From: Prevotellaceae bacterium
GTDB taxonomy: Bacteria; Bacteroidota; Bacteroidia; Bacteroidales; Bacteroidaceae
Reading direction: 5' to 3'
Length of the DNA stretch: 64,000 nt
NCBI GenBank assembly: GCA_030531085.1
Contig: JAUNOM010000002.1
Coordinates: 11,094 to 75,093, forward strand
Shown: piece by piece, positions 42,153 to 49,258 of the stretch
Position numbering within the stretch: position 1 is the stretch's first letter
How the letters are laid out: every line of letters starts with the position of its first letter
Translations under genes and position numbers: made by a program
Notes under the pieces: model-generated
The model's input: only the letters and a program-made list of their open reading frames with translations
What the model was told of the DNA's origin: nothing
The model's database searches: none

Positions 42153-44261
42153 ATGATGAACCAACCAGAGATGACAAACAAGGAGGCGCTGCAGCGCTTT
42201 GCCAAGAATCTTGTGGGCGATGCCAAGGCCGGAAAGCTTGACCCTGTGATAGGGCGTGATGATGAAATCCGCAGAGTATTGCAGATTCTCTCACGAAGAA
42301 CGAAGAACAACCCCATCCTTATCGGCGAGCCGGGAACGGGAAAGACGGCCATTGCCGAGGGACTGGCACAGCGTATAGTGCGCGGTGACGTTCCGGAGAA
42401 CCTCAAGGACAAGGAAATCTACACCCTGGACATGGGCGCGCTGGTGGCAGGAGCCAAGTACAAGGGTGAGTTTGAGGAGAGACTGAAGGGCGTTATAAAC
42501 GCTGTGATAGAGTCAGAAGGCAAGACCATACTGTTCATTGACGAGATTCACACCCTCGTAGGTGCCGGCGGCGGCGACGGAGCGATGGATGCAGCCAACA
42601 TTCTGAAGCCTGCACTGGCCAGAGGCGAGCTGAGAGCTATCGGTGCAACCACACTTAACGAGTACCAGAAGTACTTCGAGAAGGACAAGGCGCTGGAAAG
42701 GCGTTTCCAGATTGTAATGGTTGACGAGCCGGACGAGCTGTCCGCCATCTCAATACTGCGTGGACTGAAGGAGCGTTATGAGAACCACCACCGCGTTCGT
42801 ATACAGGACGACGCCTGCATCGCTGCAGTGACGCTGTCAGAGCGGTACATCTCGGACCGTTTCCTGCCCGACAAGGCTATCGACTTGATGGACGAGGCGG
42901 CGGCAAAGCTGCGTATGGAGCGCGACTCCCTGCCCGAAGAGCTGGACGAGCTGGCACGAAGGCTGAAGCAACTGGAGATAGAACGCGAGGCGATAAAGCG
43001 TGAGAACGACAAGGAGAAACTCGCGGAGCTGAACAAGACCATCAACGTGCTGCAGGAGGAGGAGCTGCGTATGCGCTCAAAATGGGTGCAGGAGAAGAAC
43101 CTCGTGGACAAGATACAGCACGACAAGCAGCAGATGGAACGCCTGCGCTTCGAGGCTGACAAGGCAGAGCGTGAGGGTAACTACGGCAAGGTGGCCGAGA
43201 TACGGTACGGAAAGCTCAAGGAACTGGAGGAGGACATCCTCCGCGTACAGGAACAGATCAACGCCGAGGGCGCAGGAAAGATGGTACGCGAGGAGGTTAC
43301 GGCCGATGACATAGCAGAGGTGGTAAGCCGCTGGACTGGAATACCTATGACAAGGATGATGCAGAGCGAGAAGGACAAGCTGCTGCATCTTGAGGAAGAG
43401 CTGCACAAGCGTGTCATAGGACAGGACGAGGCCATACAGGCGGTGAGCGATGCTGTACGCCGCAGCCGCGCAGGACTACAGGATCCCAAGCGTCCGATAG
43501 CGTCCTTCATATTCCTCGGAACAACCGGTGTCGGCAAGACAGAACTGGCAAAGGCACTCGCGGACTACCTGTTCAACGACGAGTCAATGATAACGCGCAT
43601 TGATATGTCGGAGTATCAGGAGAAGTTCTCGGTAACGAGACTGATAGGAGCGCCTCCGGGTTACGTCGGATATGATGAGGGTGGACAGCTGACAGAGGCC
43701 GTAAGACGCAAGCCATACAGCGTCCTTCTATTTGACGAGATAGAGAAGGCGCACGCCGATGTGTTCAACATACTGCTGCAGGTGCTTGACGATGGACGGC
43801 TGACGGACTCTAAAGGCAGAGTGGTGAACTTCAAGAACACCATAATAATAATGACCTCCAACCTCACGAAGGATCAGCTTTACGGACGTCAGCCCATACT
43901 GGACGGCAACGGCATGGTGAAACCGCCCATACGTCCGGAGTTCCTGAACCGTATTGACGAGATTATCACCTTCAGCCAGCTGTCAAAAGACGAGATAGCC
44001 GCTGTGGTAAGACTGCAGATGAACCATGTGGCCGGGATGCTCGCAAAGCAAGGTTTCACGCTGAATGTAACGGATGCGGCTGTAGCCACACTCGCCGAGG
44101 CGGGTTATGACCCGGAGTTCGGAGCACGACCGGTGAAGAGGGCCATCCAGCGGGATGTGCTTAACGCGCTGTCCAAACAACTGCTTGCAGGGACAGTAAC
44201 CAACGACAGGCCCATAACAGTGGACAGTCACGAGGGCGTTATAACCTTCACCAACGCATAA
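42153..44261 (+). CDS. clpB: ClpB AAA+ disaggregase lacking the N-terminal domain
   Basis: [14 protein letters not shown]; NBD1 GEPGTGKT; M-domain coiled coil; NBD2 [13 protein letters not shown]; GARP; 702 aa. Confidence 0.92.
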
Positions 44262-44270
44262 TATATGTAA

Positions 44271-44693
44271 TTACGGATTGTAAGTAAAAAGGCCTTTTTG
44301 CTTACAATCCGTTTTTTCGTACCCCCACGAGAATCGTTTATTTGAAAATTTTCTTTCCTCGGACGCGTACAGCGCATTCTCCGCGCAGCACGTTAATACT
44401 TTGATTATCTTTACGTTAACCGAACATACCATTTTAAAGTAGGCGAAAAGTGCCCTTAAACAGACGTTTTTCACACGTTTTGGGGCTCTTTTCACGCCAC
44501 AATATGATACAGATTGCAGGGTAATTTGATAGCTATTACAGTGTAATTAATATCATATTGCACGGTAATCAGATAGCTATTGCGCCTCAAAGTGGTAAAA
44601 GGCACGTTCGTTCTCTCTAAAACGCAAGGTGGAGACGACACTTTCAAAAACACTGACTGTAAGCAAAACGGGCCTTTTACTTACAATCTGTAA
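44271..44693. mobile_element. Putative non-autonomous ~423-bp element with hairpin-forming inverted termini (copy 2)
   Basis: TTACGGATTGTAAGTAAAAAGGCC / GGCCTTTTACTTACAATCTGTAA terminal inverted repeat; internal blocks are shared with 27710-28164. Confidence 0.6.
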
Positions 44694-44844
44694 GTTGATA
44701 TCTTTTACTTCAGCACGGAATTTCCTGCAAAAAGGTTAAAAGAAATGCACCTCTTTAAACCGCCAACCGAAGCGATGGCAGACTTATTTCATCACTTTTT
44801 TTATTTTTTCTCGCTTTTCTTTCTTTTGTTTCACAAAAATAATG

Positions 44845-44852
44845 TAAATTTG
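44845..44852 (+). promoter_or_regulatory. -7 box TAAATTTG driving the leader region
   Basis: Matches TAnnTTTG, 26 nt before the uORF ATG. Confidence 0.6.
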
Positions 44853-44878
44853 CAAGCGACATATATACAAGTGTAAAT

Positions 44879-45004
44879 ATGCGAATTGGACTACAAATCA
44901 TTTCCATATTTTCACTTATCATTATCCAACCCCACGCCGAGCCTTTGTTACGGCAACCCGTATTCAAAGGAGAAAGGGTGGGTGAAAGGATAACGACATA
45001 TTAA
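44879..45004 (+). CDS. Putative 41-aa leader peptide (uORF)
   Basis: Manual translation MRIGLQIISIFSLIIIQPHAEPLLRQPVFKGERVGERITTY*; overlaps one arm of the leader structure. Confidence 0.4.
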   Translation: MRIGLQIISIFSLIIIQPHAEPLLRQPVFKGERVGERITTY

Positions 45005-45295
45005 AAGGCGTTTACTTGGCGCTATGTTCTTGACGAACTGGAATCTAGCAAATTACCAAATTGAAGTCATGGACATTGCAACGGTAGATGACCCGGGTGT
45101 GATTTATATTACAGCCAATGGTGTTTCCTGGCAGCATGAATTGTACACATACCTCTCATGCGTATCAAGGAGCGCCGTATGGTGAATTATATTTCATATC
45201 GGCGTGGGTTCTAGCGTTGTCTGTTCAACTTCAATGGGTAATGCTAGAACCTCAGTTCGTGGGACAGACAACAAGGACGTTCCCACGCTTTTTTT
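44931..45295 (+). ncRNA. Candidate structured cis-regulatory leader RNA ending in an intrinsic terminator
   Basis: Multiple long-range complementary segments; final stem followed by T7 (45289-45295). Confidence 0.6.
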
Positions 45296-45365
45296 ATGCT
45301 CGTGAATTACAATTAACTAAAACCGCCATCATGGGGAACGGTTGGCCAACTTATAAAAAAACTAT

Positions 45366-45758
45366 ATGGCTATTGTAAAATGTTCCGAATGCGGAAAGGA
45401 AGTCTCTGACAAGGCTACGTCTTGTCCTAATTGTGGTGCACCACTTCAAACAGTTATTCAAGCACCTACACAAACAGTAGAAAAAGAAAAGATTATCGTT
45501 GTTAACAATTCATCATCAAATGGCTGTGGCATAGCTGGGTTTGTATTTGCCATATTGGGATTGTTTTTAGGTTGGATACCTGTTTTAGGATGGATAATAT
45601 GGTTTATTGGATTAATACTATGTTTTATCGGTCTGTTCAAAACACCCAGAACTATGGCTATAGTTGGATTATTCATTACATTTATAGAAGTATTTATTAT
45701 CTTAGCTATAGCAGGAACATTTGCAGCAGGTGCTTCAGCAATATCAAACAGTCTATAA
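45366..45758 (+). CDS. Zinc-ribbon membrane protein
   Basis: CSECG...CPNCG followed by three hydrophobic helices; AT-rich. Confidence 0.82.
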   Translation: MAIVKCSECGKEVSDKATSCPNCGAPLQTVIQAPTQTVEKEKIIVVNNSSSNGCGIAGFVFAILGLFLGWIPVLGWIIWFIGLILCFIGLFKTPRTMAIVGLFITFIEVFIILAIAGTFAAGASAISNSL

Positions 45759-45879: not shown

Positions 45880-46146
45880 ATGAACATTGAAGAAGCTAAG
45901 AGTGTTTTAAACACATTGAGTAAAGAATTCGACTCTCACGAGTTTATCAGGAAGTATATACAGGACTTTACTGTTTCATACGGTCAATTATTAATAGAAC
46001 GCAAACAAGTAGAATTAGCGCATGGAGCAATAGGCATATTTCTTTCGCAGCATTCTGATGAACTCGGCATTAATTGTACTGGTAAGCATAAATCTATAGA
46101 CATCTTTAATAATGAGTCTTCGTGCGCAACATGGAGTAAACTATAA
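45880..46146 (+). CDS. Small hypothetical protein (88 aa)
   Basis: Clean ORF with an A-rich translation-initiation region, followed by a terminator. Confidence 0.7.
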   Translation: MNIEEAKSVLNTLSKEFDSHEFIRKYIQDFTVSYGQLLIERKQVELAHGAIGIFLSQHSDELGINCTGKHKSIDIFNNESSCATWSKL

Positions 46147-46182: not shown

Positions 46183-46224
46183 ATCAAGTCCCCTACAGGA
46201 GTGCATTCCTATGGGGGACTTGAT
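46183..46224 (+). terminator. Stem-loop terminator
   Basis: ATCAAGTCCCC..AGGA / TCCT..GGGGACTTGAT. Confidence 0.65.
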
Positions 46225-46351: not shown

Positions 46352-49258
46352 ATGGTAACGGACACTATCATATCTGCGCTAACCAACCTTTTTGCTTTAT
46401 TCTGCTCACGGGGTGGAGTGGACAGGAGGATGTCGGCCAAGATGCTTGACAGTTATCTTGGAAGCCATTTCGGAATACGTGGTAAGGAACAATACACCAA
46501 TCTGTACATAGAACTGCGCGAGCTGTACGAGGAGATGCCACAGCTCAACATCGAGGAGATTGTCGATGGAATATGCACAGGGCTGAAATCGTCCATAAGG
46601 CACGAGGAGGGCGCCATGGTATTGCTGCGGCTTATGGAGTTCTGCGCCAAGACTCCGGAGAGCTTTAACGTAGAGGACCCGATCTTCAGACGTGCCGCCC
46701 ACAAGTTAGGTGTGTCAAAGAGTCTCTTTGACGACTTCTCCGACTTTGTGATGGACTATGAGACGCGACACGTAAAGCTATGCAGGTTTACGGGATTCAA
46801 GGCTCCTGTGAAGACATTATGGCTGAAGAGCATGAACCTTCTGATATTCTCATACAACGGAAGCGACATAAGAGGGGTGCTGTTCAACGACGTGCCAATA
46901 GCAAAGGGAATGTACCAGGTGTGGGATACCAGCGGAGTACTGAAAAACAAGTTCGGAAATCCCGTATACTATTCAACGGTACAGGCCCAATATCACACCA
47001 CAGGCAAACGGGGCAGGATACAGTTTTCCGGGCGCGACATTGATTTCCACTTCCCAGGCAGCAGCAACGGGATACACAACTTCTCGTTTGATATGCACGA
47101 TGGAGAACTGATAGCCATCATGGGCGGCAGTGGTTCGGGCAAGACCACACTGGTATCCATACTCAACGGCAGCATCATACCACAGAAGGGAAGCATCACT
47201 ATCAACGGTCACGCAATAGACAAGCCGGAGGCCAGGGCGCTGATAGGATTTGTGCCACAGGACGATATGCTGATAGAGGAGCTGACGGTATACCAGAACC
47301 TGTACTACACAGCGCGGCTATGCTTTGACGGTATGCCGGACGAGGAGATAGACAGCAGGGTGAACAAGACCCTGAAGGACCTCGGACTCTACCAGACACG
47401 CGACCTGAAGGTGGGCTCTCCAATCAAGAAAGTCATATCCGGAGGACAGCGCAAACGCCTGAACATAGCACTGGAGCTGATAAGGGAACCGGCTGTACTG
47501 TTCCTCGACGAGCCCACATCGGGCCTGTCATCAGCCGACACAGAGAATGTAATATCGCTACTGAAGGAGCAGACATACAACGGAAAGCTGATAGTCACAA
47601 ACATACACCAGCCATCGTCTGATGTGTATAAGCTCTTTGACAGACTGTGGCTGCTTGACAAAGGAGGGTTCCCTGTGTACGACGGCAACCCCATCGAGGC
47701 CATAACATACTTCAAGACGGCCGCCAACTACGCCGATGCGGACACCAGCACGTGCCCGACCTGCGGAAATGTGACACCGGAGGTGATACTGAACATCATA
47801 GAGGAGAGGGCACTCGACAACAAGGGACAGGCGACGGAGGAGCGGAAAGTGGAGCCGGAGAGATGGCACGCCATGTACCTTGAGCAAAGGGAGGCGATGG
47901 AAAAGCCGAGACCCTTCACCATACCCGGGACAGAACAGCGGAAGCCTAATGCCTTAAAGCAATGGTGGATATTCATGCGGCGCAACGTCATGTCGAAGAT
48001 AACCAACACGCAGTACCTCGCCATAGCGCTGCTTGAGGCGCCGCTACTGGCGCTGGTGTGCGCAATGCTCACACACTACACGCCGGCAGGAGAGGAGTAC
48101 TCCGTCATGAACAATAAGAATCTCGTGTCCTATCTGTTCATGGCCATAATAGTGGCAACATTCATAGGCATGAGCGGATCGGCAGAGGAGATCATAAAGG
48201 ACCGCGCACTGCTGAAGAGGGAGAGGTTCCTACAACTGTCATACCATAGCTATATATGGTCAAAGATAATACTGATGGCAATGGTGTCAATGGTGCAGAC
48301 AATGCTGTTTCTCGCTGTCGGCAACAGCATAATGGGCCTGACAGACCAGATAATGATGTGGTGGGGAATACTGCTTGTCACCGCCATTCTGGCCAGCCTT
48401 ACGGGACTGATACTGTCGCAGAGCCTCAACTCGGTAGTGTCCATATACATCACCATACCTATACTGCTCATACCACAGATACTACTGTGCGGACTGGTAG
48501 TAAACTTCAGTGACCTCACACCGGGAAGCACCACAGGCAACGTGCCACCCGCAGGCAACATAATACCCTCACGGTGGGCATACGAGGCGCTTGCTGTGAC
48601 AAGCTATGCGGACAATGTATATGAGAAGGAGCTCTTTCCGTTTGACAAGACGAACTATGAGACGCAGTATTACCGCCACGGCTTCATATACAAGCTACAG
48701 TCAGCCAACGAGACCATGAGGCAGGAGCGGCAGCGTGGCAACACGGCAGGAGTGCAGGAGCAGATGGAACTGCTAAGGAACGAGGTGCATTATTTAGCCG
48801 AGGTGTGCAGTATGGCACCGTACAGCGGAGGATATGACCACGCCTCACTGCACCAGTGGCTGGACAACGCGGAGCTATACATGAGCAGGAAAGGCAACAA
48901 GGCGGCACTGGACGCGGACAGACTGACACAGAGGAGGATAAAGGAGACAGGAGCGAAGGAACTGCTGAAGCTGAAACGCGACAACCACAACCTGCAGTTA
49001 CAGTCACAGCTGGCCGGCATGGACGCGAGGGAAATATGCGAGGTGGTGGGCGGACACATAGTACCGAGGGCCGGATTTGTATACCTGACCCCACGCAGCA
49101 CCAACGGTAACGCTCCGTTCTACAGCAGTGAGAAGCGGCTGGGCACCCTGACCATACCCACACTGTGGTTCAACATGGCGGTAATGCTGACAATGTGCAT
49201 AATCACCACACTGATGCTGCTGATGGACATACCTGGGAAATACATCAGAAGTCACTAA
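46352..49258 (+). CDS. ABCG/White-type fused ABC transporter (N-terminal helical domain, NBD, ABC2 TMD)
   Basis: GGSGSGKTT, FVPQDD, ISGGQRKRLNIALEL, LFLDEPTSGL, IHQPS; TMD EIIKDRALLKRE, PSRWAYEAL; -7 box TACCTTTG at 46301. Confidence 0.88.
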   Translation: MVTDTIISALTNLFALFCSRGGVDRRMSAKMLDSYLGSHFGIRGKEQYTNLYIELRELYEEMPQLNIEEIVDGICTGLKSSIRHEEGAMVLLRLMEFCAKTPESFNVEDPIFRRAAHKLGVSKSLFDDFSDFVMDYETRHVKLCRFTGFKAPVKTLWLKSMNLLIFSYNGSDIRGVLFNDVPIAKGMYQVWDTSGVLKNKFGNPVYYSTVQAQYHTTGKRGRIQFSGRDIDFHFPGSSNGIHNFSFDMHDGELIAIMGGSGSGKTTLVSILNGSIIPQKGSITINGHAIDKPEARALIGFVPQDDMLIEELTVYQNLYYTARLCFDGMPDEEIDSRVNKTLKDLGLYQTRDLKVGSPIKKVISGGQRKRLNIALELIREPAVLFLDEPTSGLSSADTENVISLLKEQTYNGKLIVTNIHQPSSDVYKLFDRLWLLDKGGFPVYDGNPIEAITYFKTAANYADADTSTCPTCGNVTPEVILNIIEERALDNKGQATEERKVEPERWHAMYLEQREAMEKPRPFTIPGTEQRKPNALKQWWIFMRRNVMSKITNTQYLAIALLEAPLLALVCAMLTHYTPAGEEYSVMNNKNLVSYLFMAIIVATFIGMSGSAEEIIKDRALLKRERFLQLSYHSYIWSKIILMAMVSMVQTMLFLAVGNSIMGLTDQIMMWWGILLVTAILASLTGLILSQSLNSVVSIYITIPILLIPQILLCGLVVNFSDLTPGSTTGNVPPAGNIIPSRWAYEALAVTSYADNVYEKELFPFDKTNYETQYYRHGFIYKLQSANETMRQERQRGNTAGVQEQMELLRNEVHYLAEVCSMAPYSGGYDHASLHQWLDNAELYMSRKGNKAALDADRLTQRRIKETGAKELLKLKRDNHNLQLQSQLAGMDAREICEVVGGHIVPRAGFVYLTPRSTNGNAPFYSSEKRLGTLTIPTLWFNMAVMLTMCIITTLMLLMDIPGKYIRSH

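Follow-up and report, generated by a model that had tools for sequence, protein, structure and literature searches.

The element described here lies in a 64,000-nt stretch of DNA from a Prevotellaceae bacterium; this whole stretch is called the window, and all coordinates are positions in it. The element occupies about 44857–45296 on the + strand and precedes a two-gene cassette, with which it is flanked by clpB (42153–44261) and an ABC-transporter gene (46352–49258). The first gene (45366–45758, + strand) encodes a 130-amino acid zinc-ribbon membrane protein (PF13240, E 7.7e-9) with scattered relatives at about 50% identity. The second (45880–46146, + strand) encodes an 88-amino acid protein of Bacteroidota that falls in Atlas clusters of hypothetical proteins, belongs to no named family and had no match in Pfam, NCBIfam or PADLOC; a hairpin (46183–46224) lies 3' of it. 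The relatives of the gene next to the cassette had other neighbours in all three cases looked at. An earlier note on this DNA had spoken of an AT-rich accessory cassette, and the GC content of its genes is indeed 0.35–0.36, compared with 0.48 for the genome.

The leader begins with a Bacteroidetes sigma-A -7 box, TAAATTTG (44845–44852), which predicts a start site at about 44857. It continues with a predicted 5' hairpin (44869–44917) that differs among copies and could not be aligned in homologues, with an upstream open reading frame (uORF) of 41 codons (44879–45004) having 7 Ile among its first 16 residues, and with element A (44931–44982), which consists of CCCACGCCGA (44931–44940) and A' (GGGTGGG, 44976–44982). 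CCCACGCCGA has an exact complement at 45199–45208, and CCCACGC (45282–45288) is directly followed by T7 (45289–45295). These motifs, together with a long helix (45033–45067/45228–45260), the GGTTCTAGC/GCTAGAACC hairpin and the CGTGGGA/TCCCACG stem, had been picked out in the earlier note, and all were found in the sequence, within one or two bases of where it had placed them. Folding of the 441 nt from 44860 gave -161.1 kcal/mol (z = -8.1), and none of 100 shuffled sequences was as stable.

The element is one copy of a widespread folded leader RNA of Bacteroidales that lies outside Rfam. By blastn, 143 of the 301 genomes searched from its bacterial family, its own included, had a match. Within its own genome, 14 places were returned by a profile search at E ≤1.3e-4 (one of them a 5' half only) and 13 by a covariance model of the 3' half at E ≤3.2e-5. 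The copies are dispersed, with 13–14 in this genome and 11 in each of two others. An exact 25-mer scan of species genomes gave at least 120 matches, mostly in Prevotella-like bins. The covariance model found matches in 23 of 150 other genomes scattered through the order Bacteroidales; in a sample of the phylum, it found them in 2 of 150 genomes, both Bacteroidales, and in none of 146 outside the order. Copies also sit on integrative elements and plasmids, and three viral contigs carry the element (exact 25-mer scan). A phage collection gave no match with the two queries tried. The plasmid search gave none with the window as query; a homologue as query led to two Phocaeicola plasmids of 93–95 kb. 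The copy on the Phocaeicola dorei plasmid NZ_CP072250.1 (L255:9001–9100) precedes a hypothetical gene amid NVEALA-peptide and beta-propeller loci.

The earlier note had been unable to assign the RNA to a named family, and this still holds: Rfam 15 run on the window gave best E values of 0.26 and 1.7, far under the gathering threshold, and on 29 homologue loci it gave a single match, to DUF805, outside the element. This match was rejected as the identity of the family, being a separate motif at a single locus (L215:1391–1459, - strand). There the DUF805 motif (79 bits) stands 42 nt 3' of a minimal copy, and the two form tandem cis-regulatory RNAs. We found no description of the structure or function of the family in the open literature, subscription papers being outside the scope of the search; the models of Fremin and Bhatt (PMC8040213), of which part was available to us, might contain fragments. 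In the 13 near-complete copies of this genome the promoter, the element and the gene always follow one another on one strand. Among homologues, 86 of 95 have an upstream TAnnTTTG box, compared with 11 of 90 control windows. Minimal forms of about 160–200 nt, which are devoid of the uORF and element A region, also exist.

For the study of the folds, 155 homologous matches were reduced to 132 non-redundant members at 92% identity (mean identity 66%), many of the aligned members having been recruited by one exact 25-mer. Alignment A1 contains 75 of 124 well-covered cores, and A2 contains 49 of those 75. Mutual information among the 132 members made three helices, X, Y and Z, stand out between 45033–45067 and 45228–45260. 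They belong to a rod of about 70 bp (45025–45266, + strand), the predicted read-through fold, which is made up of D:S2-3', X (45033–45040/45253–45260), Y, Z (45060–45067/45228–45235), 45071–45074/45223–45226 and 45078–45088/45210–45220. Scored over 58 pairs in the 75 cores, 95.6% of 4318 alignment cells were paired, and 449 cells had changed on both sides, compared with 117.7 in shuffles (none of 500 as high). In the same cores the terminator fold was 95.5% paired, with 88 double changes versus 32 (none of 500 shuffles as high), and the full two-hairpin fold, loop–loop kiss included, had 186 versus 58.7. Slid controls were far lower for the three folds alike; both the shuffle and the slid controls ignore kinship among members. 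The large switchable leader RNA with alternative folds around a terminator that the earlier note had proposed is therefore borne out, the covariation to be looked for among homologues having been found for both mutually exclusive folds.

That note had not included the full upstream hairpin, the 11-bp S2 stem of the terminator or the complementary loops. With the terminator enforced, the 5' half folded into a single long hairpin, H1 (45007–45093, + strand), and the 5' half alone folded in the same way in close and divergent members (among those printed). H1 comprises a base stem (45007–45016/45083–45093) in which GGCGTTTAC pairs with GTAGATG.CC, a GCT/AGC helix, stem D (45026–45034/45066–45074), the open X and Z strands and an apical stem (45040–45043/45053–45056). 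The base stem was 94.8% paired, with 6 of its 10 pairs changed on both sides, and stem D 88% paired. Two otherwise puzzling invariant blocks are explained because the base stem pairs them. An ops-like reading of the short hairpin at 45007–45023 was dropped, since its bases are accounted for by this stem.

The second hairpin, H2 (45202–45288, + strand), is the predicted terminator. It is built from T1:T2 (45202–45208/45282–45288, 99.4% paired), stem S2 (45216–45226/45262–45272, 99.5% paired, 8 of 11 pairs changed on both sides) and an apical stem (45236–45239/45249–45252, 98.7% paired). The S2 pairs 45220–45221/45267–45268 covary although the rod does not use them. A U-run, U7 (45289–45295), follows, and at least 6 T were found in the 8 nt past T2 in 136 of 150 members. 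Between the hairpins lies a spacer hairpin of variable length (45096–45200) closed by GGTGTGA/TCATATC (94% paired), the interior of which could not be aligned and is nearly gone in minimal forms. Each of H1 and H2 is about 87 nt long and has open strands (X and Z; Z' and X') below a short apical stem, and their apical loops hold 7-nt complements, Y (UCUAGCA, 45044–45050) and Y' (UGCUAGA, 45242–45248). Y:Y' was 99% paired in the aligned members, with double changes at 5 of 7 pairs, and the 2x3 loop between X and Y has a fixed size. The two hairpins are thus kissing-competent, and the rod is their extended duplex. The predicted energy is -35.2 kcal/mol for H2 alone and about -24 kcal/mol for H1. 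In each of the 47 members computed, the rod had a more favourable energy than the two halves folded separately, with a mean difference of 10.2 kcal/mol (range 3.5–18.5; 16 here).

Members of the close clade have a second terminating fold (45206–45287), which consists of a hairpin at 45206–45252 (2319 of 2627 cells paired, with little covariation) and the small CGTGGGA/TCCCACG stem (45258–45264/45281–45287; 93% paired, AU in 38 and GC in 26 at one pair). A further pairing claimed in the earlier note, 45018–45033 with 45165–45176, turned out to be copy-specific (319 of 594 cells paired).

Y could be called in 156 of 167 sequences; 2 divergent matches devoid of the 5' half were excluded from one divergent-member comparison. 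A YUNR motif occupies Y positions 2–5 (here CUAG, 45045–45048) in 138 of the 156 members and in 31 of 40 divergent ones, compared with 89 of 156 for YUNR anywhere in the 9-nt X strand and 43 of 156 in the H2 loop. X and Z vary freely, whereas Y is restricted to the YUNR pattern. Such motifs are reported to be common in RNA–RNA recognition (PMC4737173, as far as available to us). A helix formed only by zipping would have no need of YUNR, from which we infer a kiss at the H1 loop. A minus-strand TAnnTTTG box was found in 7 of 95 members, at scattered places (only promoters of this type were searched); in view of this lack of a conserved antisense promoter, the simplest candidate for the kiss partner is H2, acting either in cis or in trans. 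An antisense-type trigger, as suggested in the earlier note, is still the most attractive option, and the YUNR loop of H1 is the likely decision point. The predicted pairing of the arms was about -33 and -30 kcal/mol for cognate and -12 and -11 kcal/mol for non-cognate combinations in two genomes. In both genomes, the cognate arm was the best binder for all 11 of 11 copies, which cis pairing predicts as well.

Transcription of homologues was found in the supplements of a differential RNA sequencing map of Bacteroides thetaiotaomicron (PMC7366714), where BTnc262 is annotated as a small RNA (sRNA). By eye, BTnc262 is a whole copy with every segment present. According to these supplements and by our own count, it runs from a terminator exonuclease (TEX)-enriched start 5 nt past TAGTTTTG to 2 nt beyond the U-run, i.e., the RNA ends at the place of the terminator; a start was mapped 5 nt after the -7 box in two copies of this species. 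The duplication table (supplementary file 4) holds one unnamed cluster of 11 sites, 9 of them with BTnc names (BTnc006, 042, 047, 163, 166, 169, 198, 235 and 262), which are listed as duplicated intergenic sRNAs and which, judged by eye, are the same family as the window element. As far as available to us, the supplements give no structure or function for this cluster. It is separate there from FopS, a 14-member cluster of 65–70-nt sRNAs, to which the element consequently does not belong. BTnc163 and BTnc262 are not named in the text of the open literature searched. In 2 of 6 B. thetaiotaomicron copies searched, the map also has an extra 5' end that lies no more than about 5 nt ahead of H2 and lacks a TAnnTTTG box. 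In early exponential phase one of the two ends was detected, not TEX-enriched, and in stationary phase both were enriched, which hints at an RNA starting at H2.

For the window itself, one metatranscriptome gave a weak indication of transcription, with an exact contig over 44873–45290 at a depth of 12.6 and contigs in the two genes at 2.9–3.4; a second run of the same study gave a contig over 44929–45274. The high summed depth on the 3' half in RNA runs was not used, as it pools paralogues from many organisms, nor was the short length of BTnc163 (5' part only), as fragmented 75-cycle libraries can yield such ends. In a panel labelled gentamicin in the part of a 2024 atlas (PMC10994844) available to us, 8 RNAs of the family were up (log2 fold change 1.1–4.0). 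We rejected this as stress induction, since the rise tracks the rRNAs and tRNAs that top the same table and reads as a stable-RNA effect rather than as regulation. BT_2997, which also has an internal start of its own, was flat in that panel.

The first genes downstream were scanned for 82 of 84 copies, a sample biased to close relatives. A NusG domain was found by Pfam in 29 of the 82, KOW only in 2 more, and 4 more were recognized by eye; three of three NusG-type proteins tested passed the UpxY cut-off. The remaining first genes encode kinases, leucine-rich repeat surface proteins, TerD, FHA, caspase, fimbrillin and LytTR proteins, lipoproteins and unknowns. This diversity agrees with the portable module ahead of unrelated, non-biosynthetic accessory genes that had been proposed for this leader. 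As regards a riboswitch, the conserved bases are mostly accounted for by alternative pairing, and the downstream genes are diverse. The cassettes of L012, L015, L026 and L172 contain tubulin-like, vWA-like, kinase, FHA and caspase proteins of conflict-system type (the tubulin-like and vWA-like labels were given by eye). The UpxY genes behind the element have an N-terminal extension of 40–70 codons (L022:714–1454, - strand; L046:4163–4819, + strand; C16:7994–8749 of this genome, - strand; others in alignment A3), with a motif, GGG GTG TC, fixed at the nucleotide level in 22 of the 26 rows printed. This motif may be a pause or recruitment site, or its GTG may be the true start.

The conserved leader RNA, with its two mutually complementary hairpins, is in our opinion probably a two-state transcription attenuator, and thus likely an on/off switch, for the genes downstream. 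Termination, polarity and trigger follow from the folds by inference. H1, being transcribed first, would fold on itself. The 3' half could then pair with it, either through zipping that starts at the spacer or through a Y–Y' loop kiss followed by strand exchange; the resulting rod would hide T1 and T3, no terminator would form, and RNA polymerase would read through. If H1 were shut or occupied, the 3' half would fold as H2 before the U-run, and transcription would stop near 45295. The likeliest trigger would be an RNA–RNA race at the H1 loop, where pairing with the nascent 3' arm of the same transcript would mean on, and delay, or H2 RNA released from that copy, would mean off. Stepwise equilibrium folding predicted H1, a brief pairing of A with T1, zipping from 45222 and the full rod before the terminator can form.

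Several observations weigh against this interpretation. Equilibrium folding favours read-through, yet the RNAs that were seen end at the terminator. Because RNAs end at the U-run, stopping is suggested to be common in cells; it would then be favoured kinetically or by a factor, unless the RNA ends come from processing. H1 (about -24 kcal/mol) may resist opening and local 3' hairpins may win, in which case the kiss may rescue read-through; alternatively, released H2 may occupy H1. Pairing in the apical stem of H1 reached only 68–76%, with an AT/GC exchange at one pair, and T1:T2 is nearly invariant, so that its 99% pairing says little by itself. Relatedness of the aligned members and their recruitment by a shared 25-mer mean that the counts overstate independence. 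A simple terminator scan did not flag H2, the stem of which is long and interrupted. The metatranscriptome contigs come from one study and cannot show RNA ends, and the main contig has a 21-nt tail that was not found in the genome or the loci. In the data covered, we found no condition that flips the switch.

The best reading of the element is a two-state attenuator akin to the zipper attenuator cATT of the Bacillus subtilis plasmid pLS20, which is the closest tested system (PMC13401043, as described in the part available to us), plus a kissing-loop module. In both, a long leader contains an upstream hairpin and a terminator (predicted here) whose mutual complementarity lets a central stem grow into a rod, as found here by covariation and folding; in both the rod is the antiterminator and the default, here by prediction, and the leader often stands directly before a gene for processive antitermination. 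cATT belongs to Gram-positive conjugation operons with ConAn1, whereas the present family was found only in Bacteroidales among the genomes sampled and precedes unrelated genes. cATT has a weak SL-2 (-6.4 kcal/mol) and a short terminator, compared with hairpins of about 87 nt here and about -24 kcal/mol for H1. The loops here are exact complements with YUNR, in many copies before unrelated cargo; complementary loops were not met in the description of cATT that we had. The likeness is drawn from this published description.

Kissing loops, a U-turn loop motif, open strands by the apex and a long duplex are also features of the plasmid antisense systems pT181, pIP501 and CopA–CopT. In these the partner RNA comes from the opposite strand, whereas here both pairing partners are in one transcript. 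The recognition loop of the target hairpin H1 has the U-turn (YUNR) motif in 138 of 156 members, as given above.

Another parallel is the CI RNA of phage P4, which is processed from a leader and pairs with that leader to cause termination (PMC4825925, in part). As there, the present leader holds a potential antisense segment and its target, and a processed piece could enforce early termination. Unlike in the published P4 description as we had it, there is no Rfam match and no repeated target 3' of the antisense piece for the X/Y/Z code, and processing is merely hinted at by two 5' ends. C4 of phage P1 is an immunity RNA grouped with CI. A self-silencing circuit, in which a released H2 RNA would kiss a new H1 of the same copy, block the rod and force termination, is a tentative idea that we hold to be possible and would not lean on. 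If it were true, expression of a newly arrived cassette would come as a burst followed by silencing, a timer resembling P4 immunity; a dozen copies in one genome would be kept independent by the variable X/Y/Z code; and such timers would be distributed across Bacteroidales ahead of surface, signalling and conflict cargo.

The strongest competing explanation keeps the same folds and lets a protein set their state, a factor such as a UpxY-type NusG paralogue, or an RNA-binding protein, that binds conserved features of H1 or alters polymerase pausing; we consider it unlikely. The NusG-domain proteins encoded by 29 of 82 first genes (35 with the KOW-only and by-eye cases) speak for it, as does the fixed size of the 2x3 loop between X and Y. 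So does the distribution of the element among UpxY genes: it stands upstream of 7 of the 12 that have a long N-terminal extension and of none of the 18 ordinary ones, although the training set included some of the 7. UpxY is recruited at pause sites in leaders (PMC11685472, in the part available), and the opsX/UpxY leaders of Bacteroides capsule operons described there resemble the present one in standing ahead of a UpxY gene at many loci. However, opsX is a pause site of about 40 bp and the present element a bistable RNA of 300 nt, and most copies, and some whole genomes, have no linked UpxY. The first gene is not a cognate UpxY at this locus, and only 2 of the 14 copies in this genome precede one. 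In a 99%-complete genome with 6 copies, the UpxY profile found nothing at E 1e-5, and the extended UpxY clade was absent from all of 5 copy-rich genomes, so that dependence on that linked clade is not general. Furthermore, pairing in two or three folds accounts for almost every conserved base.

It is rather improbable that the rod is instead a stable RNA or a processing platform, cut or trimmed to give small RNAs or a protective 5' hairpin, with termination incidental or constitutive. Nine copies are annotated as intergenic sRNAs in the B. thetaiotaomicron supplements, promoter-less 5' ends lie just ahead of H2 in 2 of 6 copies, 8 RNAs rose alongside rRNAs and tRNAs in the one stress comparison, as stable RNAs would, and X, Y and Z are almost purely Watson–Crick, all of which would suit such a platform. 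It leaves unexplained the conserved, covarying stems of the separate hairpins (S2, the H1 base and D) and the constant position of the element after a promoter and ahead of a gene.

A small non-autonomous mobile element with a promoter and a terminator, the symmetry of which serves transposition or the folding of single-stranded DNA, is very unlikely. The dispersal of 13–14 copies in this genome and 11 in two others, and the occurrence on integrative elements, plasmids and three viral contigs, would fit. However, copies in the same genome are very divergent and keep all the helices, G–U pairs in many helices favour the + strand as RNA, the orientation toward the gene is fixed, and no terminal repeats were seen in the alignments.

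Finally, the ribosome-coupled attenuator put forward in the earlier note, with the Ile-rich leader peptide as sensor, is largely refuted and has next to no probability left: a uORF is present here, spans element A and stops just before H1, but 30 of 75 leaders with CACGCC have no ATG-initiated frame across the element, the frames of the other 45 are distributed 14/10/21 over frames 0/1/2 with unrelated peptides, and minimal forms have lost the entire region. The uORF, the peptide of which (44879–45004) had no Pfam match, was therefore ruled out as a control element, and, judged from the sequence, the leader peptide is a chance reading frame. None of the amino-acid biosynthetic genes expected behind a leader-peptide attenuator was found among the 82 first genes.

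The 10-nt pairing of element A with T1, also claimed in that note, fared better in part. It is kept where the upstream element exists (92% of alignment cells paired), and A:A' was paired in 796 of 882 cells; it is optional and not central. By pattern, the pairing was found in 86 of 111 close members and 12 of 40 divergent ones, and a core switch made of A:T1 was ruled out because element A is missing in most divergent members. A 10-nt complement by itself is within chance (52 of 200 shuffles have one), and A:T1 was predicted only transiently in stepwise folding, when the RNA had reached position 45212.

Accessory genes are freely exchanged among gut Bacteroidales, and the control of incoming cargo beyond transcription start is poorly understood. 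The family precedes hundreds of accessory cassettes; the three genomes in which copies were counted have 11–14 each. In the model organism B. thetaiotaomicron, with its 11 sites, the two-hairpin model would re-assign the nine annotated sRNAs as attenuated leaders. Natural orthogonal kissing switches would also constitute a ready part list for Bacteroides engineering.

Other observations were made on the copies and the locus. Half-copies occur in this genome (C11:43504–43643 and C41:17159–17418) and at L061 and L155; they comprise a 5' half without H2 and copies with the 5' part replaced beside integrase-side sequence, which suggests recombination inside the element. A small hairpin with a GGGGA-type loop (45324–45348) has counterparts just past the U-run in L013, L023, L029, L039, L198 and L212; this hairpin of several non-UpxY copies had no match in Rfam. 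A dispersed repeat with paired palindromes (44273–44312 and 44652–44691) covers 44255–44790, occurs on several contigs at about 70% identity and is also present upstream of the C22 copy of the leader. The clpB-like open reading frame (42153–44261) encodes 702 amino acids and begins at the first AAA domain, the usual N-terminal domain being apparently absent among the Pfam families listed; the genome has just one further Clp ATPase match.
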